The notes below the pieces were generated by a model. It did not search any database, was not told the DNA's origin, and was given only the letters and a program-made list of their open reading frames with translations. From assembly GCA_010093815.1 (NCBI GenBank), contig ML996567.1: a stretch of 64,000 nt of DNA. The stretch is one strand, 5' to 3'. The position numbers were made by a program, and so were the translations under genes. Below are positions 3,258 through 64,000 of the stretch, piece after piece. The number at the start of each line of letters is the position of its first letter. The first letter of the stretch is position 1. This stretch comes from Pseudovirgaria hyperparasitica. Its lineage: Eukaryota.

Positions 3258-3261
3258 ATTA

Positions 3262-3413
3262 TATAAGGAGGTAGGCTCTATATACCAACCAACTATACTA
3301 AAAGGACCGAATCTTAAAGCTACTACTTTAAGGGTGGAGCACACTACTTATATACGACTACTACACACATGTAGAATCAACTGGCAGGCCACGTGCTCCT
3401 CACGTGCCTAACA
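3262..3413 (-). mobile_element. LTR of the TRIM family (152-bp variant)
   Basis: Aligns with 50989-51129 and 51428-51568. Carries an extra 11 bp (CACGTGCTCCT) near its CCTAACA end. Confidence 0.9.
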
Positions 3414-42633: not shown

Positions 42634-42988
42634 CAGTCGGATCTCGTTATGACGATATCAGTTATATCGACAATCTCGGTATAACGATAGGGCTAACTAC
42701 CATATGAAATAGAATACATACTTTTAGTAAATGCCGACGTTTAATTGGTCTTCTTCTTTTACACCTATCTATTATTATATTGACTCGTACATAGATATAG
42801 CATAGGTATCAGTAGGGTTAAGAGGAGGCCCTTAATACCTAGTATTAGGGACTTATATAGTCTAAAAATGGAGGTAGCTAATCAACGCCCAGGGGCCTAG
42901 CTTATATAAGAATTAAATATATGATAATCTTCTTATGACGATAGATTCAACGCAGCGGTCTTCGTATCGTTATAACGAGATCTAACTG
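42634..42988. mobile_element. 355-bp MITE of Tc1/mariner (pogo-like) type
   Basis: 24-bp TIRs, CAGTCGGATCTCGTTATGACGATA versus right-end reverse complement CAGTTAGATCTCGTTATAACGATA (transitions only). TA at both flanks (42632-33, 42989-90). Confidence 0.88.
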
Positions 42989-43093
42989 TACGCGTTTAGC
43001 CACGTGAAGAGCCACTAGAAAAATGCAGTGGCCCAAGATATTGAATTGAACATGCCAAGAGCATAATTGCTTAGGATAAAAGTGGTTACTAAT

Positions 43094-45075
43094 TGTTGTC
43101 GGAAGGCACTTTGAGTAAGAGACACTGCTTCCTAAACGGGACTAGTGTCTAAACGGTTAAATAGCTTCGACTCTGTCTCCTAGAACTTAGTTCTCTATAT
43201 ACTTATAGAATATACTTAATAACCTTAATTACGTCTCCATTTCTCTTATAATAGATTATAAGCCCGGTACTTTACTATAAAAGCCTTAAAACACCTCTTT
43301 ATTAATAAAAACTATTATATTTTAATAAAAAATAAGTCCCTTTTCTAAACTTTAAGTTTTAATATTAACCTTATTAAAGTTTTTACTTTAACTACTCTAT
43401 TAACTCTCTGCCTCTATATTATTCTTACCGTTCTTCTACGTCTTTTACCCTTACTACCTTCCTTATAAATAAGTAATAAGTAGAAAGAGTCGGAATAAGA
43501 AACTATTAGTTCTATATAAAGAAAAGAGAAGAAACTTAAGGAACTTAAGGAACTTATTAATAATAAACATGTCTATTAACTTTAAACTCGATCTATTCTC
43601 TCTATCTAAGCTATCTTTAAGAGGAGAAAATTTCCCTAAGTAGAGATTAGCTTAGATAATCGTATTTAAATATATATAATTATAGATAATAGTCTCTAGT
43701 AGAGTTATTAGACCCTTTAGTACTAGAGTTACGGATTTATATATAGATATAATAGATTAGAATATAAAGGATAATAAGGTAATAATTATATTACTCTTAT
43801 TAATATATTAAGATCTTATTATAGATCTTACTTCCTATAATATAGTAGTAGCTATATAGAGTTATCTATTATTATATTTTAACTATAATATAGATAATTC
43901 TTTAATATATCTATTTAGATTACTTACTAACCTCCGCTATAAAGACGGAGAAGATATCTATAAATATATTAATAACTTCTATTATACCTAGATGCGAATA
44001 GTAAAAAGATATACTACTTTATCTTATATAGTTATAAAAGTAATACGTCTAATCTTTAAGTCTAAAGAGATTAAGGGCTTATTCTTTCTCGTCTTATTAT
44101 CTAATACTATAGACTATATTATTAATAATTTATCTACTCGAGATATATTACATTTTTAAGATATTAAGCTAAAGATACTTAATCTAGCTAAGAAATATAG
44201 TATTAAGCCTAATACTATAGGGTATAAGGCCGGTTATAAGGGTAAGTCTAGTTAGCCTTCTAAGTTAAAGAAGTCTAACTCCGCCTCTATCTCTTCCTTA
44301 GATACTAAGTATACCTAGTATAAGAAATATAGCTTCCCTTCTAAAGGCTATAAGTATTAGAACTACTATAAGCTTAAGGCTTCTAAGAATAATAATAAGT
44401 CTAAAGGTAAGTCTAAGAATAAGAAGTCTTCCTCTAAAAAGGACTTCTTAAGTAAGTAATAAAAAGCTAATAAGGCTAAAGTTATTAAAATTTTAGATTC
44501 TAAATCTAACTCTAATAATAATATCGTTAGTTTCTTTGTAACTATAGCTAATATAAATAGTAAGCGATCTTAAGTAGTAAGTTAGCCTCTTATTTTAGTA
44601 ATATTTTTAGACCTAAGTATTAAAGCTATTAGACTTCTTATAAATTCTAATATTACTACGGATATCTATAATTAGATTTTTAATTCTAGAGTCTTAAGAT
44701 ATATATTAGGCTATATAGATAACTTCTCCTCTCTAGAACCGCGTAACTTAGATAATATATTAATTACGAATTATTAGAAGATTCCGATTAATAGTATTAG
44801 AATAGTTTTCTTAGATTATATTCTCTTAGATAGTTCTATAAAAAAGGTTAAACTTACTAATATTCTCTTTAGTAAGTAACTAAATTCTATACGCCTTTTC
44901 TTCTAGTTATATATTAGAAATTAAGAGTATAGTTTAAGAGTAAAAGGGAATAATCTCTTCTTATATAACTACTACGGATCTAAAGTAATATAGGTAAAAT
45001 TCTATAAGGGCCTTATAAAGATTCGCCTACGCTATATATCTCCTTCGCTTCTATTATATACTATAGTATACTTTA
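43094..45075 (+). mobile_element. Truncated RIP-mutated Ty1/Copia retrotransposon (5' LTR 43094-43253, PBS, gag, protease)
   Basis: LTR starts TGTTG. It is followed by GATTATAAGCCC (RIP form of the Copia PBS GGTTATGAGCCC). Gag ATG ~43568, zinc-knuckle remnant ~44310-44368, W-I-F-D-S-G-A-S-R-H-M protease remnant ~44673-44705. Cut off by the family C LTR. Confidence 0.85.
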
Positions 45076-48000
45076 TATTAGGACTTAGCCTTAGGTAGGA
45101 CCCGACCTACACGTACCTTAGCTAACAGGGTTAGAAGGTAACGTGAAGGGCGGTAAATAGTTACGTACTAGATAGATTAGCGTCCCTTTATATATATACT
45201 CTTAGATTCCTACTAAAAGGGTTCGGTAGTAATTTATTCTATAATAGAATATACCCTATTATTCTATCTAACTATACTACTATCTAATAACTCTATGCTT
45301 ATATTCGAATTACTCCCTATATAGTACTATAGTTAAGATAGTCTAACTAGAACCGAGAAGGTCGACACGATCTACTATAGGGATAAGTAATACTATATTA
45401 AATAATAGGGATCCTCTATAATTAGTATTAATCCTAGCCGTTTCTAACCGAGAAGTAGAAATATTAGACCGAATTACGGAGCTTTTAGATGAAGAAATAG
45501 TAGAGACGCTAAGTAACGTCTAATAATATAAAGCCGGATAATAAGTCGTGGTAGAGCTACGTAAGGTATTATAATAAACTATTACTAAACTTTAGGAATA
45601 TATCGCGAATTAGGCTTAAGAGATTTAAACCCTTAAAGAATAGGTAGAACGCGCGAAACTCCTTATAAAGAGACGAGAACTTAAGGAGTCTCTTAAAGAA
45701 CTACGCCGAACGATAGTAGGTAGACGACTTCCTATACTAATTTAGGCGGAATTAGTTCACCTACTATTAGAGTTATAATAATCTACTATATACCTAGCCG
45801 CTTCGTTACTAATTTACCCTACTTCTTCTCTAGATATACTAAAATCTAAAGACCTAACTATATTTATAGAGAAGAACTAAAAGGAGTAGAAAGACTAGAA
45901 GAGAGACTACGAAAAGTACTTCCTCGATAACCCTCTACTCTTTTCTACTAAAGTATAACGTATTTCGTTCGGAGAACGATATCTAGGCTTATAATCCCGC
46001 GATTAATAGGATAGATAGAAAGAAGTATAGCTACTATCTACGATAACCTAGGAATATTTAGCTATATTTATACTAAACACCCTCGGAACGGATAGAGAAC
46101 GTGAAAGAAAGGTACTATCTAAGTTAAGAAGCGTAGTATAATAACCGAACTAGACACCTACTTAACTACTATAATACCTCTAAAACCTATAGAATAATAT
46201 CCCTATACTATAGAAAAATATTCGTATATTCTAGTTTCGCGAAGTACTACTTCCGTTAATCCGCGAAAGACTAGAAATAGTATTATTAAGTTTTAACTAT
46301 CTATATAAATTAGAGAAGAAAGCTAATAAATACTACCGCATCCTTAAGGAACGTAGCTCTCTAGGTAAAACCGATAAACCCTATACGGGTTAGAAACGAG
46401 GTCAATCGAATACGTTTAATTAAGAGTAACCTTACTATAATTAGTACTAGAAGAGCGTAAATCGGGGTAGAAACGCGTTAAGAGGATACTAAAATAATTA
46501 AGGCGGTACTTCTTAACGTAGAAAAGGATAAGGCATAGGCTTAAATATAATACCTATCGTAAAATAGTAGGATTATAGCGCACTTTATTACTATAAGTAT
46601 AGAGAAATAGAATATATTTCGCCTAACTATAAGAATCCGAAAAAAGAGTAGGCTAGTATACGAGATCTAACCGCGTTCTTAGCTAAATTATATATACTTA
46701 GAAGGAGCCGTAGCGCCTTCCGGTAAGTAAAGACCTAATATTACTAAAAGTATTATTACCTATAGTAAATGGTAATAAAACTATATAGGCCCTCGTGGAT
46801 ACTAGTATAGAAGATAACTATATTTCGTCGATTCTTATAAAGGAGTATAGATTATCGTATAATCTTAGTAAAGTTAGCTAAACTATTATAGTTAATAGAT
46901 ATAAAGTTAGAACTTTAGGTAAAGCTATAATAAATTACGAAGTTTATAACTCGAAGATAATAAAATAGTAGATGTCTAATAAATTTATCGTGGCTAATAT
47001 TAGCTAATAGAATATAATTCTAGGGATGCCTTAGCTTAGACGCCTAAACCCTATTCTTAATTTTTAGAAGGAGATATTAACGTTTTAATAATACTATAGT
47101 AAATTATACTAGTAAGTTATAACTATTAGTAAGGAGGTATAGAACCTTACCGTACGGACCCGATTATTACTAATCTATCTTACGTCCTTATTAATTATTA
47201 ATAAAGATAAGAATAATAGTAATAATCGGGGCGAAGACATACTATCTAATATATATTCGTAGTATACGGATGTGTTTTCGGTAGAAGATACGTTACTTCT
47301 CCCTAATTACGGGCTATATAAGCTAAAGATCGAGCTTAAAGAGGGAGTAGACGTCTCTTATAGTCTACTTTACCTACTTTTAAGACTAGAACTCGAAGTT
47401 CTTTATAAATATATTAAAGAATACCTTAGAAGAGGCTAGATACGTCGTAGTATATTATCGGCTAGTATATCTATTCTCTTCGTAAAGAAGAAAGACGGAA
47501 GTTTATATCTATACGTTAACTATCGGGCACTAAATATAGTAACTAAGAAGAATCGTTATCTATTACCGCTAGTTAGTAAATCTTTAGACTAATTAATAAA
47601 GGTAAAGTACTTTACGAAGCTAGATTTATAAGATATATATTACTAGCTTTAAATTCGTCGTGGAGATAAGTGGAAAACTATATTTCGGACTAGATATAGT
47701 TATTTTAAGTATACTATTATACTATTCGGGCTAATAAATACGCTAGAAGCGTTTTAAGGATATATTAATACTATACTTATAGGATTACTTAATATGATTT
47801 ACGTAGTTTATCTCGATAATATACTAATTTACTCTAATAGTATATAGAATTATAAAGAATACGTGAAATCAGTGCTAAATTATCTAAGGTAGTATAAACT
47901 CTATATAAAATTATCTAAATACGAGTTTTACTAATAAGAAGTTAGGTTTCTCGGCTTTATCATAATATATAGCGGCCTAAAAATAGAGCCGGAGCGTGTA

Positions 48001-49253
48001 AAGACTATCATAGAATAGCTAGAACCTACTACTATACGTTAAATTAGAATATTTATAGGTTTCGTAAACTATTATTATAAATTTATTATAGGCTTCTTAT
48101 AAATTACGGCGCCGCTTAATAAACTTATAGAGAATGGCGGTAAAATCTCTATAGATAGGCGAGTATAGCGTAAAGCTAAGTTAGTCGGGATATAGTTAAC
48201 ACTAGAAGCGCGAGATACGTTCTAATTATTAAAGAATTACTTTATAACTACGCCGATTCTTAGGCATTTTAATTCTAAGAAGTATATTTAGGTTAAAACT
48301 AACACGTTAGAATTCGTAATTACTAGAATTATTAGTTAACCGTATAAAGATATAAAAGATAAGGTATAATAGTACCCGGTCGCCTTCTTTTTCTATAAAA
48401 TAGTAGATATAGAGACGTGTTATAATATACACGACTAGAAACTACTCATAATTATTAAGAGTTTTAAGTAATAGTAATATTATTTAGAAGGCTCCGTACA
48501 TTAGATCGAATTATTATTAGATTACGTATAAGGATTATAGACGTAGAATAGTAGTCTAACAGGTCATAGAAGGATTCGGGAATATATTTAAAAGGGTAGT
48601 CTACTCTCCTAACGAGGTTGATTCCTAAAGAGTAGGAATTAAGTATATGCGGCCTACTTATATAGTGGTCTCGCTTATTCTAGCTAGCTTAATCTAGGTC
48701 CACCTATCACGGACCGTACTAGACCATAGTAGTCTAGTTAAGTCTATTCTAGTATTAGCCCTAATAATATCCTTCTTCTTTTTATGCTTCGCCCTAAAGT
48801 ACTTAGCTATATATAAATCTATAATTCTATAAGCGTTATGTTTATACGTGTATCTAATTAAATCCATATAACGTTATCGATAGTCTTTACATTAGTAAAC
48901 TTAAGCTCTAGTTTACTTTTATTTATATACGCGCTTATCCCTTACTTTATAGCTACTGCCTTAGAGGTAGCTCCGCGGGTCATGTAACCGCTATATTAAC
49001 TAAGCTTATATTTAGTTCTCTTATTCTAAATTTTCTTCTCTAGTATATCTACCTTACTCTTAAGGTAAGTCGTTAATTCATATACTATCTCCTTTAGTTT
49101 AGATCTATTCGGGTCTAGAGTAGTCTATTTTTATTAGAGCTGGTCCTATATAATCCATTCGCGTTATTACGGTTACTAATTTAGCTTTTTTAATCGCCTT
49201 TAAGACTAAACGAGTATTCTACTCTTAGATCTCTAGCTAACGTGTATATATAG

Positions 49254-50558
49254 ATATCTAATACTAGTTCTATTCCTAAGCCTGCCTCCTCCTCTCGTAA
49301 GACTCGCTCTAAAGGGATTACCTCTACCCCGGCTACACCGGCTAAAAAATCCACTTATTATAGTAGTATAAAGGCGCGCTCTAAGTTAGAGAAGAAGGTA
49401 GCTAAGGCTACTACTACTATTACTACTAACGTGGCCACTAGTCGCTCTAATCTAGGTAATCCTAGTACTAGTATTGCGGAAGAGATAGCTATAAAGCCTA
49501 CCTACACCTACTCGCGCCGTCTATCTACTCTACCTCCTTTAGAGAATGAAGAAGATCTTATTATAGACGATAATCGAGAGTTTACGCCTTCGCCGCCTCG
49601 CTCTAAACGCCGTTCCTCTTTTTAGTCTAATATAGACTAACTTAGTCGCTCTAGGTTCTTTTAGGACCTTAATATTTACTCTAAACCCAGCCCTAGTAAT
49701 AATAAGGCCTAGGTCGCCGAAGATACTAAACGTAGTCGCGGTTTACGCTATAGGAAAACAGCGAACTACGGTTTAATATACTTTAAGTATATTAAGGCTT
49801 ACGCTACCGGCTCTAAATATCTCTTCTACTCTAACTCTAGTATTAGCTACTACTCTACTAACCGCGATAGGCCTATACGTCTAATCTTTAAGCTCCCTAC
49901 CTACTACCGCCGCTATACCGTCCTTAGTAAAGTTTATCTTTAGGTAAGTCTATTAGACTATTTTAGTCTAGGGTAATCTAAAGTTATCCATGCTAATACG
50001 TTTTTAGGTTTCTATTTATATATAAGATATATATAATAATCTTCGCGTCCGCGAGACTCTCGGCGGTTCTAGCGGTTACCTAGCTTCTATACGTAGGGAG
50101 TTTAGGGAGCGCTATAAGCTCTTCCTAGAGGTTATTAAAGTGTAAGTTTAGAAACCGTTAATTATTATTAACCTTAGCTTATAATTTTTAGTCGCCGCGA
50201 GATTCCTAGCGCTTAGGCTACCTATTCTAGGGAGTCGGTTTTAGCTACTAAGGCCGTAGAAGAGATTCGTACTATTCCTTCCCGTCCGCCTCGTACTACT
50301 AACGGGTCTTATAAGAGATCTACTAGTTCTCCTTCTAAGTTACCTTATAAGAGGGTATATATTCTATTCTAGATTATTCTAGACCGTGTTAGCTAACTTT
50401 AGGTCTAGTCGCTCCGCTCTAGCACTTAGTCGTCGTCTTACTAGGCTCTAACCGAGCGCGTGGTTACTCTAGAGGATAAGGTCTCTAACCTCCGTCGCTC
50501 TATTACTCGGTTAGTTTATCCGCTATACTCTAAGAGTAATAATAAGATAGAGGAGTAG
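49254..50558 (+). pseudogene. Antisense 4-exon accessory gene of family A (exons 49254-49943, 50008-50141, 50192-50354, 50403-50558), about 380 aa, Zn-cluster-like plus coiled coil, RIP-mutated
   Basis: Frame is kept across three GT..AG introns with branch-like motifs. Internal stops are only TAA/TAG (RIP products). The start is ATA (presumed RIP'd ATG) directly after an acceptor. Confidence 0.75.
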
Positions 50559-50809
50559 CTCTATGGCTCTGTTTGCTAGGGTTTCTATATAGTATATATT
50601 GGCTCTATCTACCTAGTTTCTATCCGTTTTAGTCCTTTTTAGACCGTTTAGATACCTATCTACTAGTTTTCTAGTAATTTAATTCTTAACTTAATGATAT
50701 TATGTGCGTTCTTATTTATTCTATGACTATTGAATTTTAGGTTCTAATTTCCTTTAAGTTACTTAAGTATAGGCATTATATATAAATTAGTTTATCTCTC
50801 TAAATTATA

Positions 50810-50859
50810 TTAGAGTACCCGAACTAGTGGCCTAGTAGTTATTAGTTCGGGTACTCTAA
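50810..50859. repeat. Inverted repeat / hairpin with a 17-bp perfect stem
   Basis: TTAGAGTACCCGAACTA ... TAGTTCGGGTACTCTAA. Confidence 0.85.
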
Positions 50860-50988
50860 CCTTTTATATTATATATCACGAGTTCAATTCCGTAGTGGGG
50901 TACCTTTTTAGTTTCTTAGTCCCATGTTCTTCTCGTGTGTAATGGTCTATATTAGTCCATTCTAGACTTCTCTATGTTATTCTATTAT

Positions 50989-51568
50989 TGTAAGGAGGCG
51001 GGCTCCACGTACCAACCAACTATACCAAAAGGGCCGAATCTTAAAGCTACTGCTTCAAGGGTAGAGCACACTACTTATATACGACTGCTGCACACATGTA
51101 GAATCAACTAGCAGGCCACGTGCCTAACAATATCTCCCCTTTTCGAAGGCGCGTGTCCTCACGCGTCGTGGGCATGCTACCTTACGAAAGATAAACTAAA
51201 CTAGCCGTAACGGGCCTAGTATAAACGATATGCACACACAACTAATACTCGCAATGCCGCCTCTAGCACTAGACACGCTAACTTACCGTAGTAACGTTAC
51301 TACCATGTTATCCGTTACGTGTATAAAGTATATGTGACGTGGTAAGCTAAACGGAATCGTGCGAAATTTAATAACGGTTAACTAGACCGAGAGTTGAACC
51401 CGTGACCCCGTAGTAGCTTTAAGATTATGTAAGGAGGCGGGCTCTACGTACTAACTAACTATACTAAAAGGACCGAATCTTAAAGCTACTGCTTTAAGGG
51501 TGGAGTATACTACTTATATACAACTACTACACACATGTAGAATCAACTGGCAGGCCACGTGTCTAACA
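50989..51568 (-). mobile_element. TRIM (non-autonomous miniature LTR retrotransposon), 580 bp
   Basis: 141-bp TG..CA LTRs at 50989-51129 and 51428-51568, 298-bp non-coding interior. ATTAT TSD at 50984-88 and 51569-73. PPT AAAAGGGGAG on the minus strand. The empty site is visible in the paralog at ~61071-61090. Confidence 0.93.
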
Positions 51569-54500
51569 ATTATGATATATCGCGTCGCGTGCCTATAACG
51601 GTTATTTACGTTTTCTTCGCGTTTAGTAACCGTATATCGCTTAAATTATAGGGCTACCTTATAGAGTTTTCCTAGTATGCGTTTAGGATTTATGATTCGA
51701 CACTTCGTTTTCTATAGTATTCTTCTTCTTTTTATAACGGCCCTAACGGTACTAGGTTTACGGTAGTAACGTGTTATCCTATAACCTCTATTTATATATA
51801 GCTATCGCGGTACTTAAGATATGTACCATAGGTTCCTAGGTATCCTTATTCTCGGTATAGTTCTTCTAATAGATTTAATACTTTTAGATACCGTTCTCGT
51901 CGAGCCTATATTCGATAATATAGTCTACTTCGTACACGTCTAGTCTATCTTAGGGTATAATAGAGTGTAATTACACGTTTATATATTTATACACGTTAGG
52001 TCGAAACCTTTTAAGTAATAAGATATAGAATACGTTATAGACTTTCATGTCGTTTCCTAGGTCGAGCTTATAGACTCTTATACTAATATAACGTTTAATT
52101 TAGAAGGGACTAGTCATTTTATAATCGAGCTTTTTATTCACTCGCGACGTTTATATATTACGGACGTTAAGGAGAACTTCGTCTCCCTCCTCGTACGCTT
52201 AATCTTTAACTAATCTATTATAGTACTTTATATATAACTTATTCGCTTACTAGATTATTACGCGATAGTTACGTGTGGTTTTAAAGATTTTAATTGCCAG
52301 TTCCTACGCGTGGACGTTAACATCTATTATTCGGTCGAACTAGACCGTGTAAGGTTCGAAACCTATCCTTAGACTACGTTCTAGGTTCGCCTAGAAGGGC
52401 GTGACACCTATTATACTATAACGACTATTATTATACGCGAATTCTACTATACTTAGTAGAGAGGCCTAGTTATCTTATTTAAAATTATAGAATGCACGAA
52501 GGTAGGCCTTAAGCGTTTAGTTCTATTACTCTATCTAACTATCTATTTATAGATGGAATACTATTAACATGTTTCTATTTATACCGGCTATTTCATAGAA
52601 TAACGTCTAGAATTTAGATATAAATATACTCCCTCGGTCCGTAACGATCCTTTTTAGTATACTATAGACCTTAATAATCTTATTCTAGAATACTTATACT
52701 AGTTCTTTTAATGTAATCGTCTTCTATATAGGGACGTACCTAGATATCTTTATAAGTCTATCCACGATAATAAGAATTAAATTATAACTTATTCTAAGCA
52801 TCTCGCTTGGAGGTAAGTTAACTATAAAATCTATAGTAATATCTTCCTATATAAAGAGGGGGACTAGTAGAGGCTGTAAGTTCCTATATAGCTTATACCT
52901 AGGTGCCTTTATTCTTTAATAAATCGGATAAGTAGCTATCCATTCTTCGACGTACTTAGGTATATCTTTCTAAAAATAGTACTAACGAATTAAGCTTAGG
53001 GTGCGTATATACCCGAAATATCCTACTAGGTTAGCGTTATGGTATCGGCTAACTATAGTAAATTATGCGTTGCCCGTCGGTATATAGTACTTTCTATTAT
53101 AGTAGAGTAAGCCGTCCATGAAGGTCTACTTATAGTCTACTTCGGTCTATAATAACCTATCTTACTATATTTTACGTAACTTTAAAACTATTAGGTCTAT
53201 CTTTTATAGATCTATAATTAACTAGGCGAGGTCTACTTAATATATACGCCGGGTACTATCGCCCTCCCTAATAGCGCTGATAAATGGCTCGCTAGGGACT
53301 TCGGTACCGCGTCTTTAGTTACCGGCTTTAGTCTTATAAATTTAATTACCGGCATTAGCGTTAGTATCTCGCTAATCGTCGGATAACTTATTATCTAACC
53401 TCGTCCTTAAGAGTTAGGCCTATAGCTACTATAATTCTAGGCGCCTTCTTTATAGTTAGGTCTTCTTAATATTCTATTAGCTAGGTTTATACTTCTAGGT
53501 CGATGGTAGATTATAAAGTAGAAATTTATAAGCTACTTAGCCTATCGAACCTATCGATGATTTAAAACCGTCGTGCTTATAAACCCCTTTAAGTTATAGT
53601 AATTAGTTAGTAACTTAATATTATATATAGTACCTTTAAGATAATATCGCTACTACTTAAACGACTCTACTATTACTAGTAGCTCTTGGTTATAAATAGT
53701 ATATCTAGTCTTAACGTCGGCCATCTTACGCGAGAAGAACGTAACTAGATACTATTAGACCTTTTTAGACTCTATTAGTCTAGGCTAGGAGAGTATACCC
53801 GAGATTATAAATTCTAATATATTAGTTTCGACGCGAATAGATTTAGTTAGGTCGAAGTATACTAGTAATAGGGCGGTTATAAATGCTTCTTTAATCTTCT
53901 CGAAGGATGTTCTTTCGACCTTAGTTAATTTAATAGATTATAATTCGATATTACGCTGTTTCTGTCCACCATAGACCGTAATAGACGAGTTAGTAGTAGT
54001 AGTGCGTGTATTAAGTGGTGCGGCTAAACGGGAGAAGTATTTAATAAATTTTTAGTAGTAGTTGGCGAAGCTAATAAAGACACGTATGTCTCGAACGGAT
54101 TTTGGTTTAGGCTAGTCTATAATAGTAGTAACTCTATCTCTCTCTATGGTTATACCTTAATTAGTAATAACGAAGCTAAGAAAGTTAATATAGTCCTAAT
54201 AGAACTCGCATTTAGATAGCTTAATATATAGCTTATACTTTTCTAGCCTATCTAGGACTATACGTACGTGCTAGATATACTTCTCCTCGTTATCTAAGAA
54301 GATAAGAATGTTATCTAGGTACACGATATATATCGTGTCGAGTAGGCCTACTAGCGCGTTATTAATATATACTTAGAAGGTGTCTAGCGCGTTAGTTAGT
54401 CTAAAAGGGACTACGGTATACTTAAAGTATCTATAACGGGTCCTAAAAGCCGTTTTCTATTCGTCGCCTTCCTTAATGCGAAGGCGATAGTAGGCGTTAC

Positions 54501-57500
54501 GTAGATCGAGCTTAGTAAAGATCTTTACATGTTCTAGTCTATTAATAGACTTAGAGATAAGAGGTAGTAGGTAACGATTCTTTCGTGTAATATTATTTAG
54601 GCTATAGTAGTCGATATATAGATAGAGGCTCCTATTCTTCTTCTTTATAAAGAGGATTAGAGCTCCGGCTAGAGATATACTAGGCCTAATCTATCCTCGC
54701 GTAAGGTTCTTTTCGATATATTCTTAAAGGGCTTATAACTTAGGTTCTAAAAGAGGGTAGATGGGTCCATGTAGAGGTTACTAGCCATCTTCGAGATTAA
54801 TAGTAAGGTTAGTAGGTTAGTATTAAGGTAGTTCGGAGGAATCGATTACTAACGCGATATATTAGTATATTTTATACTAATATAGTAGGTTTTCGTCTAC
54901 TTTAATACTAAGCTTACTATTTTATATAAGTAAGAGTATATAGATAGTAGAGATTACCTTCTCGTAATCCTTCTAGAATTATTCGTCGTTAATAAGCTAT
55001 ACTAGTTCCTATTAAGGTAGGTTTATACGCTAGCTAGCTGTCTTCTTAAGGAAGTCTAGTTTTAGGTTATATTTCTTAAGCTATAGTATACCTAGGATTA
55101 TATCGAAGGGACTATCTACCACGATAAAGGTTAAGTAGTAGAGTTTCTATTTCCCTCCGCTATTCTAGATGCTATATTTAATAGTATAGGTGCCGTATAA
55201 CTTAATAGGACCGTTAATGCTATGGAACATAGTACTTATTAAAGCTTAGATGTCGGCGTTAAGTTCTTATGCTTATTAGATTAACATGACGTTAGTAGCC
55301 GATCTACTATTAAGTATTATAGTCTAATATTATCTACGAGGGACCTCGATAGGTCTAGCCTATAGTTCGATATACTATTTAGCGGATTACCCCTCTATTA
55401 TAGTCGCGCCTATAAGTCGCGAGGGTTTCTTATAGACTATTAGTTTTTTATATTCTATACTAGGTAGTTAGGCGCGATGTATCCTAGCTACTAGCACTTA
55501 TAGTATATAACTAGTTAGTTAGTTATATTAGCACTTAGTAGCTTCCCCGAACGGTACTTAGGTACTATATAGTCTATTCTATTATAGGTATAGTAAGTAA
55601 CTTTAGGTCGTTTATACGAGTCGGTCCTCGTATCTTAACGTGTCGATTAGTAGGGAGATCCACGATATAATCCGCGTGGTTTTGAATTTAAGGCGTAGTA
55701 GTAGCCTCGTAACGTCCCGCGAGATCTATTACTAAATTAGTTTTAGTTAGATAATTTTACGTTAGATTAGATCATTAGAGATAGTCGTGCACTAGCGCGG
55801 CGTTAATTATTTATTATACGCTAGTATCGCTCCGCGAGGTTTATAAGAGCTTAGAGATCTATAGGGATTATTATTATAAGGTCGAGATAGTCCTTTATAT
55901 TTAGGGCAAGGGACCGTTTAAAGTCGTTATACTATCGAATTATATAATCTTCTTCGGCTTCTCTCTAGAGGGGCCGAAGGTATTTAAGGAGTTATAATAG
56001 TAACTAATTATCTCGTTATCGAGTCTTAAAGATATAGCCCTAGGCCTAGTCGCGTTATTTAGCCCTATCGCTAAAACATTAGAGGAGAAATTCGGTGAAC
56101 GTGTCCTAGTTATAGGCATCCTTAGGATATTCGATTCGGTATACTATCTAACGTTCTAAAGGCGTTAGGTCGAGGTAGTTCTAGGCGAATCTAATTTTAT
56201 CGCTGTCGTTCGTGAATAGATAGAAGAATCGGCTATATTAGTAAGCCTATATATAGAAACTCTTTCTACTTTTACCATCGAAGTAAGGTAGTTTCTTAGG
56301 TCGGGGTAATTAGGATAGTAGTAGACTAGGATAGATCGTTTTAGTTAGTATAGGTCTATATAAATGTAGATTAGTCGTTACTAGAACTAAAGCGCATAAT
56401 ATAGCTTTAAGTCTTATAGTACGTCCTCGAGCTTCGTCGAGTTCATATAGTTATTACTTAAGTTAAACCTATTATTACCTCTCTTCGTGTAGTCTAGTAT
56501 ATACGTTATTATAAGGTATGGTTAACGTTAGGTAATTCTAACGGATTAACTCGTTAACGTTAATAAGGTCTAGCCTTATATTAAGGTTAGGTCTAGTATA
56601 GTTTAAACTAGACCGAGATAGAGTATAATAGACTCTATCCTTATATTCTATAATATCTTCTATAGTTACACGGAATATCGTATAAGTTATTAGTACGATA
56701 GCCTATAAGGTATAGTTATTAGTAGGGGTAGTTATAGGTAGACTATTCTCCTCGTTTAGGTTAGGAGAAGGTCTACTATAAGAGGCGGTGCCACGAGTGT
56801 TATAATGAGTGGTTAGAGCTATTTCTATAAACTACCGTCGTGCTATATAAAGAGGAATTAAAATATAAGGATTATAGACGTAGGATAGTAGTCTAATAGG
56901 TCATAGGAGGATTCGGGAATATATTTAAAAGGGTAGTCTACTCTCCTAACGAGGTTGATTTCTAAAGAGTAGGAATTAAGTATGTACGGCCTACTTATAT
57001 AGTGGTCTCGCTTATTCTAGCTAGCTTAACCTGGGTCCACCTATCACGGACCGTACTAGACCATAGTAGTCCAGTTGAGTCCATCCTAGTGTCAGCCCTA
57101 ACATTACGTAAATCTATATTACTTTATATTAACTAAGGTCCTTAATCGCCGATAAGTACGTTAGGCTAAGTAGATATTAATATTTAACTTTAAAATCTTA
57201 TATAAAGCTAGAAGAGAGAATAAAGCTAATCCTCTATCGCGGCGTAAAGATTATAAGAAATCGTTATAGAATAACGTAGATAGTTAGTATAAGTTAGACT
57301 ATACTATACTTTAGATACTATAAGACTAGTTATCTAATAGAATACTAGAAGCTAGAACACTTTCGGCGATTCTCCGCGGGAATTAGAGCGGGTATTAAGT
57401 AATCTAAATAAACGTCTAAGAAACTAAGAAAACCCTCGAAGACTTAATTAAATCTACCTAGAATTCCGATATATTAGTAAAGAAAGTCATAAGCATAAAA

Positions 57501-59346
57501 GGAAGCGCTATAGATCCGCCATAGTTATTAAGGTAGGAACGACGATCAGACGCGATCTACTTCTAAGGCCGACTCTATATACCGGAAGACGGCTTACGAA
57601 TCGATGTTTTAAGGGAATAGTATAATTACGCGTTAGTAGGGCACTTCGGCATTATAAGGACGGTCGATTTAATCCGAAGGACGTACGACTAGCCGGGTCT
57701 TTATAAATATATAAAAGACTACGTAAAAATGTATAACGTTTGCCAGTATACGAAAGTGTATAGATACTTACTATATGGCGAATTAAGGCTATTACCTATA
57801 CTAAAGGAGGCATAGAAGGAATTATCTATGGATTTTATTATAGATCTACCCCTAAGTAAGTATTCTAGGTATATTTATAATAGTTTACTTATAGTTCTAG
57901 ATAGATTTACGAAGATGTTATACTATATCTCTATAAGAAAGATAATCCAAGCACCGGATCTTATAGATATACTACTCCGTGATGTAGTTCGGCTCTATAG
58001 TATACCGAATGGTATAGTTTCGGATAGAGGTCCGTAGATAACGTCTAAATTTTAGAAGGATTTCTACTATACGCTAGGAATCAAGCGGAAACTTAGTACT
58101 ATATTCTACCTATAAATAGATAGGTAGACGGAGCGGTAGAATTAGATAGTCGAGGCGTATTTACGTGTATATTATAACTATAAGTAGAATAACTAGGTAA
58201 AGTTAGTCTGTATCGCGGAATTCGCGTATAATAATAGCCGATATACGTTAACCCACGTAAGTCCGTTCAAAGTAAACTTCGGTCGGAACCATAATGCGTA
58301 GTTCTTAGGGACTTAGTTCAAAGTAGAACGATCTAACGTTAAAGTAATAGAAATTACTATAGAACTATTCTAAACGTAAAGAAGCGTTATAAAGTTACTA
58401 TAAGATACTACGAATTATAGTAAATCGCACTATAATAAGGGTAGAAAACCCATGATCTTTAATGTTAGGGACAAAGTTTTACTAAATAGCAAGAATATTC
58501 GTAGTATTAGGCCAAAGAAGAAGCTTAACTATATAATGATAGGTCTATATAAGATTACTCGTGTAATTAATAACTAGGTATACGAGTTATAACTCCCTCC
58601 TACGTTAAAGATATATAATATATTCCATATTACGCTTCTCGAGCCATTTCATGCCTTATTATTACCGGATCGTTCTGAATAGATACTACATGAAGTAGTT
58701 ACGTAAGAAGGTATAGATATCTACGAAGTTAAGTAGATACTTAGCTAGTAACGCGCCGAAGATGGCACGTAGCTATATAAAATTCATTAGAAAGGATATA
58801 ATTCTAACGAAGATACTTAGGAACCTGTAATAAACATTAGTAAAGTAGCGATATTAGTATATAAGTAGCGATTGGTAAAGGAAGCCGTAGAATCACGGAG
58901 AATTATGCTAAAGTACGGCGATTCGACGTTTTTTAGTATAGTTCGGCGCCGAGAACGGCCGCCTAAAAGGAAGAAGGTAAAAGAGACATAGATCTTTAAA
59001 ACATTCTAAGGAATTAAGGAACTTCCTTAGAAAGTTTAAACTTAGAACTTTAAAAAATTTAACTAAAAAAGAGACTTAGAAAAATGATTTACTAAGAGAA
59101 ATGGACATCGAAAATCGGTGCCGATTAGTATAGATTAGTATAGATTACTAAAGAGATTAAAGAAGTTATTATTAAAGAAAGATAAAATTAAGAAAGCTAA
59201 AAGAAAATATAAAGATCTATATAGATCTATATAAACTCGTACTAATCTATCTAGAAGAAGTAAGATCGCTTTAAAATTAAAACCGAAAAACTAAAACGCT
59301 AGATAAAAGAGATATATTAGTACCGATCGGTATAGATCTAAACCGA

Positions 59347-60328
59347 TTAAGTCGGAGTAGGAGTAGAAGTACTAATTACCGCGATAGTTACATCTAATTC
59401 CTTCTGCTGGTTCTTATTTAGTATAGTATAGAGCTTTATAATATAAGTCTCTAGCCTTTCGTTCCGACGCTATAAATTCTATATAGCGTGCCTTATAACT
59501 ATGAACTCCTCTATAGAAACCTATAGAGCGGCGGGACCCGGGACGGAGAGAGACGGACCAGCGCGGGCACGCTAAGAATTATATAAATTAGCGAAAAGAT
59601 TTAACGATTAGTATAGAACCATATACCTTTAGTATAGAAACTTCTAGATTAGAGCTATCTTCCCTAAATTTACGGCTCTTTAGCACGCGCGAGGAAGAAA
59701 CCTTAGCCTTTTTACTAGAACCTTTTCTAGGAATTCTAATATCGCTAGTATATAGAAAGAAGTCCGAAGTAGTAGAGATTTTAGTACTATTATAGAGATT
59801 AATATATATTAGTAAGAATCTATAACGATTTAAGAAAAACGATATTACCTAGTAATCGCGGTAATAATAGCTATAGTAGATTCTAATAAATCCTTACGGA
59901 TCTTATTAGAATCGTACTCCTAGGCGTAACTCTTACCTTAGGTATATAGCTCGTAGAAAGCCTTCTCTAAGGCGTTACGATCGGTAGTACTACGCTCCTT
60001 ATCGGTAGGGGTTACTAGAGGCCTAGTAGTAATCTATACCGATATAAGTAAATCTACGTAAAGTTCTTCGAACTTAATTAAATACCTATAAGTAATAACG
60101 CTTCTTAGTCATGTAAGTACCGTATATTATAGATTTAGTACTACCGTGAGTAATATACAACGGAAAGCGACAACCATAATAATATATAGCTAGATTATTA
60201 GAGCCCGGCCTAGGTCGGGGTAGATCGATAGCTTTCGACATGTCGGTGACGTATATAAGACAGGGATTATTCGAAGGCGCCTGTTTCCGCGCCGATTACT
60301 TTAGAGCGTCGAGATTTTAGGAAACCAT
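59347..60328 (-). pseudogene. Antisense 4-exon accessory gene of family C (exons 60328-60086, 60033-59849, 59786-59627, 59571-59347), about 270 aa, Zn-cluster-like plus coiled coil, RIP-mutated
   Basis: Intact ATG at 60328. Three 52-62-nt GT..AG introns keep the frame. Two Cys TGT codons survive (60262, 60172). Internal stops are only TAA/TAG. Confidence 0.78.
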
Positions 60329-61040
60329 GTTAAGATTATTATTAATTTATATAGATTATTACGAATTATATTATTACTAGCTAAGGACGGCACGAAAATT
60401 AGTAAATTGCGTAAATCGCACTAAATTATAGTAAATCTATATAAATCTATATCTATAAGGATCGGGTGATATATCTAATAATCTAAAAAACTCTATAAAG
60501 AGTTAAGAAGTTTTTTAAAGAAAGGAATATTTCTAAGAAAAGATTTTAATATAGGTAGCACCCGGGCTTACCTAATTATATTACGTGATACGCTAGGCCT
60601 AATTAGGTAATCTCACCTATGTAAGAAGTTAAGATGGATAAAATTTGGTTTATTAGGAAAACGCTTATATAAATCTTAGATCGGCGAATATTAGTAAGTA
60701 TCTAAGACGAAGCGTAGAGAACGACTAAGGTCTTACGAGACTTAGGATAGGGATATAGAGATAGATAATAATCTAGGTCGCTAAGGGTAGCTTCCTAGAG
60801 GGAAGGGATAATTATTAGGACTTAGCCTTAGGTAGGACCCGACCTACACGTACCTTAGCTAATAGGGTTAGGAGATAATATAAAGGGCGGTAAATAGTTA
60901 CGTACTAGATAGATCGGCGTCCCTTTATATATATACTCTCGGATTCCTACTAAAAGGGTTCGGTAGTAATTCGTTCTATGATAGAATACACCCTATTGTT
61001 CTATCTAACTACACTACTATCCAATAACCCTATTCTTATA

Positions 61041-64000
61041 ATATTAGTCTATTCTAGACTCTTCTATATTATTCTATTATGGTATATCGCGTCGCGTTCC
61101 TAAAATGGTTATTTACGCTTTCTTTGCGTCTAGTAACCGTATAACGCTTAAATTATAGGGCTACTATATAGAGTTTTCCTAGTGCGCGTCTAGATTTCCT
61201 AGTTTAGCACTTTATTCTCTACGGTATCCTTCTTCTTTTTACGACGACCGCGATATTACTATACTTATATTAATAATACGCTATTCTATATCTTTTACTT
61301 ATACGTAGTTATTATAGAACTTAAGATATATACCGCTAGTTCCTAGGTGTCCTTGTCCTTAGTATAGTCCTTCTAATAGATTCTATATTTCTAAATACCG
61401 TCTTTATTAATCCTATGTTTAATAATATAGTCTACTTCGAACACGTCTAGTCTATCTTAGGGTATAATAGAGTGTAACTATACGTTCATGCGGCCATACA
61501 CGTTAGATCGAAATCTTTCGAGTAGTAAGACGTGGAACATATTATAGATTCTTATATTACTTTCTAAGTCGAGCTCGTAGACTCTTATACTAATATAACG
61601 TTTGATTCGGAAGGGACTAGCCATTTTATAATCGAGCTTCTTATTTACTCGCGATGTTCGTATATTACGGACGTTAAGAAGGACCTCGTCGCCCTCCTTA
61701 TACGTCTAATCCTTAGCTAACCTATTATAGTACTTCGTATACGAGTTATTTACTTATTAGATTATAGCGCGATAGTTACGTACGGTTTCGAAGATTTTAA
61801 TCGCTAATTTCTAAGCGTGGACGTTCACGTCTATTATTCGATTAAATTAGACCGTCTAAGGCTTAAAACCTATCCTTAGACTACGTCCGAGATTCGCCTA
61901 GAAAGGTATAATATCTATTATACTATAACGACTATTATTATATACGAACTCTACTATACTTAGTAGAGAGGCCTAGTCGTCCTACTCGAAATTATAGAAT
62001 ACATGTAGATAGGCCTCGAGCGTCTAGTTCTATCGCTCTATCTAGCTATCCATCTAAGGATGAAATACTATGGATATATTTCTATTTATACTTACTATTT
62101 CGTAGAATAACGTCTAGAATTTAGACGTGAAGGTACTTCCTCGGTCTATAACGATCCTTTTTAGTATACTATAGACCTTAATAATCTCGTTCTAGAACAC
62201 CTACGCTAGTTCTTTGGATATAATCGTCTTCTACACCGAGATATACCTAGATATCTTTATAAGTCTATCTACGATAGTAAGAATAGAATTATAACTTATT
62301 CTAAGTATCTCGCTTAGAGGTAAGTTAACTATAAAGTCTATAGTAACGTCTTCCTATATAAAGAGGGGGGCTAAAAGAGGCTATAAATTCCTATATGGCT
62401 TATGCCTAGGGGCCTTCATTCTTTAATAAATCGGATAAGTAGCTATCTATTCTTTAACGTACTTAGGTATATCTTCCTAAAAATAGTACTAACGAATTAA
62501 GCTTAGGGTATGTACATACCTAAAGTGTCCTACTAGGTTAGCGTTATAGTATCGGCTAACTATATTAAATCGCGTGTTACCCGTTAGTATATAGTACTTT
62601 CTATTATAGTAAAGTAAGCCGTCTACGAAGGTCTACTTATAGTCTACTTTAGTCCGTAATAACCTATCTTACTATATTTTATATAACTTTAAAACTATCG
62701 GGTCTATCTTCTATAGATCCATGATTAACTAGACGAGGTTAATTAGATATTCATGCTAGATATTATCGCCCTTCCCGACAGCGCTAATAAACGGTCTACT
62801 AGGGACTTTAGTACCGCGTCTTTAGTTACCGGCTTTAGTCTTAGAGATTTAATTACCGGTATCGACGTTAGTATCTCGCTAATCGCCTAATAACTTAAAA
62901 TCTAACCTCGTCCTTAAGAGTTGGGCCTATAGCTACTCTAGGACCCTATAGCTACTATAATTCTAGGCGCCTTCTTTATAGTTAGGTCTTCTTAATATTC
63001 TATTAGCTAGATTTATACTTCTAGATTAATAGTAGATTATAAAGTAAAAGTTTATAAGCTACTTAGCCTATTAGACCTATTAACGGTTTAAAACTATCGT
63101 GCTTATAAACCCCTTTAAGTTATAGTAATTAGTTAGTAACTCAACGTTATATATGGTACCTTTAAGATAATATCGCTACTATTTAAACGACTCTACTATT
63201 ACTAGTAGCTCTTGGTTATAGATAGTATATCTAGTCTTAATATCGACTATTTTACGTGAGAAGAACGTAACTAGATACTATTAGACCTTTTTAGACTTAG
63301 TTAGTCTAGGCTAGGAGAGAATGTCTAAGATTATAAATTCTAACGCGTCGGTTTCGACGTGGATAGGTTTAGTTAGGTCGAAGTATACTAGCAATAGGGC
63401 AGTTATAAATGCCTCTTTAATTTTCTTAAAGGAGGCCCTTTCGCCTTCTAATAATTCTATAGGCTATAATTTAATATTATACTATTTCTATCTACCGCGG
63501 ACCGTAATAGACGAATCTATAGTAGTAGTACGCGCGTTAAGCGGTGCTACTAGCCAGGAGAAATACTTAATAAATTTTCGGTAGTAATTAGCGAATCTAA
63601 TAAAGACACGTATATCTTAAACCGATTTTAGTTTAGGCTAGTCCACGATAGTAGCGACCCTATTCCTTTCTATAGTTATACCTTAATTAGTAATAACGAA
63701 GCTAAGGAAGTTAATATAGTCCTAGTGGAACTTACATTTAGATAGCTTAATATATAGCTTATATTTTTCTAGCCTATCTAGGACTACGCGTACGTGCTAG
63801 ATATGTTCTTCTTTATTATTAGAGAAGATAAGAATGTTATCGAGGTATACGATGCACGTTATATTAAGTAGACCTACTAGCGCGTTATTAATATACGCTT
63901 AGAAGGTTCCTAGCGCGTTAGTTAGTCTAAAAGGGACTACTATATACTCGAAGTATCCATAACGGGTCCTAAACGCCGTTTTCTACTTATCGCCCTTCTT
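61041..64000 (-). mobile_element. Third family A-like Gypsy copy (chromodomain, integrase, RNase H, RT), runs off the window
   Basis: Colinear with about 50949-50988 plus 51574-54470, without the TRIM. Shows some non-RIP substitutions and an 18-bp insertion near 62935, so probably a sister subfamily. Confidence 0.9.

Follow-up and report, generated by a model that had tools for sequence, protein, structure and literature searches.

What, if anything, was once encoded in the long spacer between pol and the 3' long terminal repeat (LTR) of a heavily mutated fungal retrotransposon? The question is raised by a 64,000-nt stretch of DNA from Pseudovirgaria hyperparasitica (assembly GCA_010093815.1, contig ML996567.1), called the window throughout, in which a sequence-only reading had placed an intron-containing gene on the minus strand at 59347-60328. 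The host of this candidate is a Ty3/Gypsy chromovirus lying on the plus strand, here named family C, which has been inactivated by repeat-induced point mutation (RIP). The candidate lies where it had been described, antisense within the Gypsy element, between the end of pol at ~58990 and the polypurine tract at 60797 with the 3' LTR. The spacer that holds it (58991-60796, ~1.8 kb) is part of the repeat family and is without a known domain. We estimate at roughly 45% the probability that the minus strand of this spacer holds the remains of an antisense coding sequence killed by RIP, in the simplest case an accessory open reading frame (ORF), and this figure includes the case in which the proposed gene model is right in its details. 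The strand is modestly open and its codon-like phasing is likewise modest; the evidence for the candidate is statistical and modest.

Openness of the minus strand

The first line of evidence comes from frame '-1' (frames '-0' and '-1' denote frames of the minus strand). A long open course of this frame, at 59062-59848, traverses both the third proposed exon and the third proposed intron, continues beyond the proposed stop codon of the gene, and has 4-5 stops per 171 codons. Over 58850-59831 the frame holds 11 stops in 327 codons, compared to 21.4 ± 2.9 in shuffled sequences, none of 200 of which reached the observed value; 1000 Markov simulations each gave P=0.003-0.004. The count of 4-5 stops per 171 codons, found over ~59060-59900, belongs to the top 1-2% of 1634 RIPed windows of 513 nt, and windows this low in stops occur at seven sites. 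Four of these are pol domains read in the sense direction, two are ORF-like relics elsewhere, and the seventh is the candidate region. Five stops or fewer were seen in 7 of 334 windows read in the sense of pol vs 0 of 334 windows read antisense to pol. Frame '-1' is thus more open than every one of the antisense-of-pol windows, which argues against a spacer that never encoded anything.

That the spacer is nevertheless non-coding, being 3' untranslated or regulatory DNA with short tandem repeats, and that the gene is an over-reading of RIPed sequence, is an explanation to which we would give a substantial chance, though one short of even odds. In RIPed DNA any stop can be excused as a former CAA, CAG or TGG codon, GT..AG pairs and CTAAT motifs are abundant, and frames with few stops tend to look RNY-like (purine, any base, pyrimidine). 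A number of our results weigh on this side and against an antisense coding sequence. When the best path through the 982 nt of the candidate was scored by its stops, allowing at most three GT-AG introns of 45-75 nt, it had 6 stops vs 9.8 ± 2.0 in 200 dinucleotide shuffles, a marginal difference (P=0.04) that leaves the shuffled paths nearly as open, and equal openness was found in 10% of 316 other RIPed windows of 982 nt. Taken as a single frame, the best reading of 59347-60328 does not stand out (P=0.16 in 1000 Markov simulations). Stop counts in themselves hardly discriminate in such DNA, the mean per 171 codons being 11.8 for RIPed sense coding sequence and 12.2 for antisense. The lower part of frame '-1' contains 10-bp tandem repeats, shows no TA phasing and has a codon score of -0.067, and a stop-free run of 86 codons is perhaps longer than a heavily RIPed gene should retain. 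Moreover, several statistics were tried and the best ones are reported, so that the best P values overstate the case, and one copy only was readable.

The searches for homologues and domains were also empty, which again favors a non-coding spacer. Pfam gave no match at E≤1 on the six frames of the spacer and none at E≤10 on its minus-strand frames. A 493-residue reading of frame '-1' had 0 matches at E≤0.001 by phmmer against 1.84 billion representative sequences, and in a word-based search with the frame '-0' reading, 0 of 267 candidates reached E≤0.01. Rfam returned only a sub-threshold, miRNA-like match (24.5 bits, where the gathering score is 90 bits). RIP-tolerant degenerate DNA patterns were also without matches, both for the third proposed exon in metagenome contigs and for the LTR in metagenome and viral contigs. 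On the other side stand two general considerations: 1.8 kb of useless sequence would seldom be kept in all the copies of a retroelement, and the same spacer in other elements holds antisense ORFs, to judge from the parts of the literature cited below.

Codon-like phasing of TA dinucleotides

The second line of evidence is the position of TA dinucleotides relative to the codons. In the proposed frames, TA falls across the codon boundary (third position of one codon, first of the next) in 21 of 34 cases in exon 2 and in 16 of 22 in exon 3. For the four proposed exons together the fraction is 0.53, against 0.396 ± 0.046 in controls matched for stops (P=0.0039), so the phasing goes beyond what the avoidance of stops would produce, and it is exons 2 and 3 that drive it. 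Counted by codon phase, the TAs of exon 2 are distributed 6, 7 and 21 (P=0.011, conditioned on the low stop count), and those of exon 3 are distributed 1, 5 and 16, a bias that 0 of 41 matched controls reached. The same signal is visible when the frames of the model are set aside for 170-nt windows: those starting at 59610-59670 reach a chi-square of 20.2, a value attained by no more than 1% of the 2510 windows compared. An antisense ORF relic in the neighboring Gypsy element of family B, described further below, has a like TA signature (112 of 208). In the frames claimed by the sequence-only reading, the phasing is codon-like in exons 2 and 3. Exons 1 and 4 are statistically ordinary (P=0.31 and P=0.33), which has to be counted against the gene.

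Other measures of periodicity proved less informative. The in-frame nucleotide period-3 of the model, with a chi-square of 51, was striking at first and turned out to be ordinary once conditioned on the low stop count, the per-exon P values for period-3 and RNY being 0.42, 0.11, 0.44 and 0.26 for exons 1 to 4. Control segments with few stops show the same RNY bias (mean 0.15-0.27, vs 0.00 when unconditioned), which indicates that the periodicity comes with the selection for few stops, and is what would be expected of non-coding sequence as well. When codons were scored by a model derived from the RIPed pol genes, the proposed frame ranked first among the six frames in exons 2-4 (0.089 in exon 4); conditioned on low stops, the support from this score has P=0.048, and exon 1 has P=0.34. 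A local parser using the same pol-trained scores chose one minus-strand segment, 59514-59374, and one plus-strand segment, 58999-59343; both scored low, and the parser was set aside as uninformative, A-rich composition dominating its choice.

Because TA is its own complement, the phasing is blind to strand, which weakens the case for an antisense gene in particular. Could the coding-like signal then belong to the plus strand? It would do so as a C-terminal extension of pol, as a small extra sense ORF, or as an old captured coding fragment that never served family C as a gene. The TA phase is common to the partner frames of both strands, and the plus-strand frame of pol is itself stop-free over exon 3 (59592-59795, 67 codons), a point that likewise tells against an antisense reading. 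In pol itself, too, the antisense partner frame corresponding to '-1' has few stops throughout, 43 in 583 codons vs 42 in 583 for the sense frame. The best pol-like codon segment of the spacer, 58999-59343, lies on the plus strand (17.9 bits), and a captured fragment would agree with the small extent of the clearly phased DNA, ~400 nt. However, the plus-strand frames over 59347-59860 have 12-20 stops per ~171 codons vs 5 in frame '-1', and directly after 58990 the pol frame has ~7 stops in ~37 codons. Alignments to pol homologues end by 58985, with none extending further among the first 45 BLASTP matches (85 homologues in all), even though the query was ~470 codons longer, and the codon score of the plus-strand segment probably reflects its A-rich composition. 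Taken together, we regard a plus-strand origin of the signal as very unlikely.

The four-exon model

Within the antisense coding sequence that we favor, the sequence-only reading had specified one particular gene, of 271 codons in four exons from 60328 to 59347, split by three short introns and bearing a Cys-rich motif at the N terminus. The letters on which this model was built are present. On the minus strand there is an ATG at 60328-60326, the first after the 3' LTR, from which the DNA reads MVS*NLDALK*SARKQAPSNNPCLIYVTDM...GCRFP...IYGTYMTKKRYYL* (asterisks being stops) up to a GT at 60085. All three GT..AG pairs (60085/60034, 59848/59787 and 59626/59572) are found on that strand, as are the branch-like motifs TACTAAT (59814, 59613) and GCTAAT, and the TATA-like TATATAAG upstream at 60671-60664. 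Once spliced, the model has 8 internal stops in addition to the terminal stop, and the copy in the window is dead.

Exon 1 (60086-60328, minus strand like all that follow) is in frame '-1' and has 3 stops in 81 codons. Intron 1 (60034-60085, 52 nt, GTATTT...TATAG) leads to exon 2 (59849-60033) in frame '-0', with 2 stops in 61 codons, and intron 2 (59787-59848, 62 nt, GTAATA...TACTAAT...ATAG) to exon 3 (59627-59786) in frame '-1', which has 0 stops in 53 codons and shows stronger phasing than any other part of the spacer. Intron 3 (59572-59626, 55 nt, GTATAT...CTAAT...TTAG) is followed by exon 4 (59347-59571) in frame '-0', with 4 stops in 75 codons, the last one included. The model has several points in its favor beyond its GT..AG boundaries. 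It accounts for the change of frame between exons 2 and 3 by a 62-nt intron. In run X1, the reads of the source organism, 11018 short contig pieces of at least 80% identity cover 58400-61100; no indel with a share of at least 10% was found among these copies at intron 2, so the frame change is not a private indel. Per 100 nt, the three introns contain 19-23 TAs and the exons 14-18, and the proposed frames are, as noted, those that score best in exons 2-4.

The introns themselves are not supported beyond what chance would give. Fungal introns are typically ~45-90 nt long and have a donor near GTRNGT and a CTRAY branch 10-40 nt before YAG, and only one of the three, intron 3, fits the strict pattern GTRHRT..CTRAY..YAG; its donor GTATAT is one RIP step from GTATGT. 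Intron 1 has a poor donor and is without a CTRAY branch, and intron 2 has a donor lacking G at +5, so that both fail the pattern; neither GTATTT nor GTAATA is reachable from the fungal consensus by C>T or G>A changes. In RIPed DNA the strict pattern occurs 0.63 times per kb per strand, so that ~0.7 would be expected in the candidate stretch, and the loose pattern GT..CTRAY..YAG occurs 8.25 times. TACTAAT and CTAAT are equally at chance density, at 0.82 and 3.9 per kb per strand. The TATA box fares likewise and carries no weight, motifs of the form TATA[AT]A[AT][AG] being found 2.5 times per kb in RIPed DNA. All of these densities speak for an over-reading of mutated sequence and not for a gene.

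Nor is the parse unique. Frame '-0' serves both exon 2 and exon 4 and is continuous between them, the exon 4 region has fewer stops in frame '-1' (2) than in the proposed frame (4), and the minimum-stop parse of the region picks introns other than those proposed; several parses therefore fit. The Cys-rich motif, for which Tyr codons had been taken as mutated Cys codons, also adds no weight to the model, although two TGT codons are present in exon 1. The Tyr codons TAC and TAT could equally derive from His (CAY) under RIP, and among the 40 of 144 variable places in the X1 copies that are listed, on which our copy-level letters rest, none touches a Tyr codon and none restores a Cys. That Cys changed to Tyr by RIP may nevertheless occur in family C: in a Pfam-scan reading, the integrase zinc finger of the element has YNVC at what we take to be the position of a C-x2-C. 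With exons 1 and 4 ordinary and two poor donors, the proposed gene model is weakly supported and, with one degraded copy, indistinguishable from chance, and we consider it improbable that it is right in all its details. More generally, RIPed DNA readily produces low stop counts, RNY bias, TATA boxes, branch-like motifs and GT-AG pairs, and claims of ORFs in it therefore need either un-RIPed copies or controls that are conditioned on the selection made.

Antisense genes in the same position of other elements

If a relic of antisense coding sequence is what the spacer holds, its position, that of the antisense additional ORFs called aORF-3R, is not without precedent. In the Boty-like Gypsy elements of Botrytis and Sclerotinia, an antisense gene, brtn, lies between pol and the 3' LTR, according to the available text of PMC7264820, PMC8365987 and PMC4227169, with reference to Zhao et al. 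(2011, Virology 417:248). As far as these descriptions go, Boty is like family C in being a chromodomain-bearing Ty3/Gypsy element of fungi and in having its extra gene antisense to gag-pol and in the same position as the candidate. The difference is that the family C copies seen are all RIP-mutated; brtn was compared by its description in these texts only, and the searches made with the candidate gave no sign of homology. For additional antisense ORFs in general, the portion of PMC7264820 at hand states that they lack similarity to known proteins.

By analogy, it can be hypothesized that family C carried a brtn-like antisense ORF of its own, which would have been transcribed in active ancestors from the LTR-proximal end of the spacer and would have started at or near the ATG at 60328. 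Its product might have been a small lineage-specific protein of ~170-270 residues, acting on the element's own expression or transposition. Introns in such a gene, if any, would not be lost in retrotransposition, the genomic RNA being of the opposite strand. If the gene is real, it would follow brtn of Boty as the second kind of accessory gene carried antisense by a fungal Gypsy element.

Antisense ORFs between pol and the 3' LTR are also described for plant elements, namely Grande (gene23), RIRE2 and PvRetro13 in the available part of PMC7264820, and Retand, whose TRP28 ORFs occupy the same spacer, in that of PMC11963269. As presented in these two sources, the plant elements resemble family C in a long pol-to-LTR spacer that bears antisense ORFs and often short tandem repeats, and a regulatory role has been proposed for them. 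They differ from it, on the same basis, in being non-chromoviruses (Tat/Retand), with spacers of 2.9-6.6 kb and with ORFs that are intact in recently active copies. The TRP28 domain is reported there for 97% of Retand clusters, whereas the candidate is without a Pfam family; the corresponding domain, Transposase_28 (PF04195), was not found in any minus-strand frame at E≤10. Retroviral antisense genes, such as HBZ of human T-cell leukemia virus type 1 (HTLV-1), are alike in lying on the opposite strand to gag-pol near the 3' LTR. HBZ also has a spliced form. These differ in belonging to vertebrate viruses, in encoding proven proteins and in having no sequence relation to the candidate, which is known from sequence statistics alone. 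The plant literature cites retroviral antisense genes as a model for a regulatory role, as seen in the accessible part of PMC11963269.

A clearer antisense ORF relic, in family B

The pol gene of family C is split by a nested second Gypsy element on the minus strand, family B (48527-57103), and this element has an antisense relic of its own. The relic, at 49254-50555 on the plus strand and thus antisense to family B, spans 434 codons with a 124-codon stop-free run, and sits between the end of the family B pol (~51900) and the complement of a polypurine tract (48765-48780) that adjoins the 3' LTR. In the surrounding segment 48950-49931, 327 codons include 11 stops vs 23.5 ± 2.9 in shuffles, period-3 is pronounced (p=1e-9), and the TAs are distributed 55, 41 and 112 over the codon phases (p=1.4e-9). 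The ATA at 49254 may be a former ATG. No Pfam match and, by word-based search, no homologue was found for the relic. With a signal much stronger than that of 59347-60328, the family B relic is the better brtn-like candidate of the two. The two share the same architecture and the same TA phasing across the codon boundary, and have no sequence similarity, the spacers of families C and B being without any at the protein level.

One could envision that families C and B each once had an antisense accessory gene in the pol-to-LTR spacer, unrelated to one another, that of family C being spliced with introns that persisted via replication through the opposite strand. We regard this joint scenario as rather unlikely. 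If both genes were true, antisense accessory genes would be recurrent and independently acquired in fungal chromoviruses, and not peculiar to Boty. A real gene in family C, together with the family B case, would also point to such genes being common among fungal chromoviruses, where RIP conceals them from gene finders.

The host element and its copies

Family C was mapped by self-comparison and by Pfam scans of read-through translations, with stops written as X. Its 5' LTR (45076-45303, plus strand, 228 bp) is 91.7% identical to the 3' LTR (60813-61040, plus strand), the aligned pair beginning with TATTAGG, and in X1 the depth over the 3' LTR is about twofold, which is normal for an LTR. The polypurine tract, AGAGGGAAGGGATAAT at 60797-60812 on the plus strand, stands immediately before the start of the 3' LTR. 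Reverse transcriptase (47482-47965, RVT_1, 3.2e-16) and RNase H (48202-48496, RT_RNaseH_2, 8e-09) precede the insertion of family B on the plus strand, and the 3' part of pol (57104-58990, plus strand) follows it, with the integrase zinc finger, rve, SH3_Tf2-1 and a chromodomain. In the plus-strand frame from 57000, Integrase_H2C2 (1.3e-10) and SH3_Tf2-1 (2.1e-12) were matched; rve (4.8e-06) and Chromo (0.036) are both under the Pfam cut-off. The weak chromodomain match reaches ~58850, and alignments to homologues that bear PF00385 pass through the chromodomain region. The pol homologues of family C have 24-40% identity (n=85), which makes them too distant for a homologous spacer to be expected in them.

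No clean target-site duplication was found for family C, whose own flanks read CTTTA and ATATT. Family B is flanked by a perfect 5-bp duplication, TTACG, at 48522-48526 and 57104-57108 within the family C pol, which makes it one clean insertion event. Its LTRs (48527-48764 and 56864-57101) are 94% identical, and Pfam finds reverse transcriptase, RNase H, integrase and SH3 on its minus strand.

GC content is 49-59% in the GC-rich blocks of the window (~4-42 kb) and drops to 30-39% in its AT-rich blocks, at 1-4 kb and 42-64 kb. RIP is usually recognized by a high TpA/ApT and a low (CpA+TpG)/(ApC+GpT); these indices are 1.49-1.66 and 0.21-0.26 in the AT-rich blocks, compared to 0.67 and 1.24 in the GC block, and 1.49 and 0.23 in the spacer 58991-60796. 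The AT-rich blocks thus carry the dinucleotide signature of RIP, and family C is a heavily RIP-mutated repeat. In agreement with this, 126 of the 128 kinds of difference listed among the X1 copies are transitions (C>T 44, G>A 49, A>G 16 and T>C 17, with 2 others). At four CpG sites (59328-59329, 60003-60004, 60226-60227 and 60293-60294) the window has kept CG where most other copies have TA, both strands having changed, so that the mutation process also strikes CpG, besides CpA/TpG.

Self-comparison of the window gave no second copy of 58246-60812. The X1 contigs cover 58400-61100 evenly, and the spacer is covered like the 3' end of pol, from which it follows that the spacer belongs to a high-copy family. 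In most other X1 copies the first in-frame stop of the candidate, TAA at 60319-60317, is CGA, and the start codon is ATA; the ATG of the window, compared with ATA in most other copies, looks ancestral. One X1 contig bridges 59191-59569 and 59630-59701, skipping 379 + 72 nt, and loses the proposed exon 4; we interpret it as a structural variant among DNA copies and not as splicing. The 10-bp tandem repeats of the spacer (2.5-3.1 copies, at 59123-59147, 59207-59235 and 60422-60452) are reminiscent of the tandem arrays that the available text of PMC11963269 describes for the same spacer of Retand.

A contig of 2840 nt from run X5 has a depth of 2604, where other X5 pieces have ~4-120, and its last part matches the LTR at 60883-60946 (3' LTR region 60853-60946). 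The letters adjoining this match differ from the window by 9 transitions in 30 nt, in the pattern of an un-RIPed LTR. It thus seems that an un-mutated relative of the family C LTR, either high-copy or highly expressed, exists in another dataset under the same organism label, and this high-depth version suggests that the sequence needed for a decision exists in public data.

Other repeats and relics in the window

Just upstream of the 5' LTR of family C lies another ORF relic, at 42900-45075 on the plus strand, with 40 stops in frame +0 vs 85 and 109 in the other two over 725 codons. Its TA phasing reaches a chi-square of 30 at 44050-44690, and the pol-trained codon score is positive only in frame +0. 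We considered whether it might be a second copy of the family B spacer and rejected this, there being no similarity. A retropepsin in it was a guess that Pfam did not support, no Pfam family being found in the relic.

Finally, a unit of ~148 bp beginning with TGTAAGGAGG occurs twice within family B copy 1, at 50984-51131 and 51424-51570, 440 bp apart. It is missing from the copy at 61041-64000 and occurs once more at 3258-3395, beside an LTR in the copy at 1-3.4 kb. The unit could be a small insertion, LTR-like or similar to terminal-repeat retrotransposons in miniature (TRIM), or else a tandem duplication.

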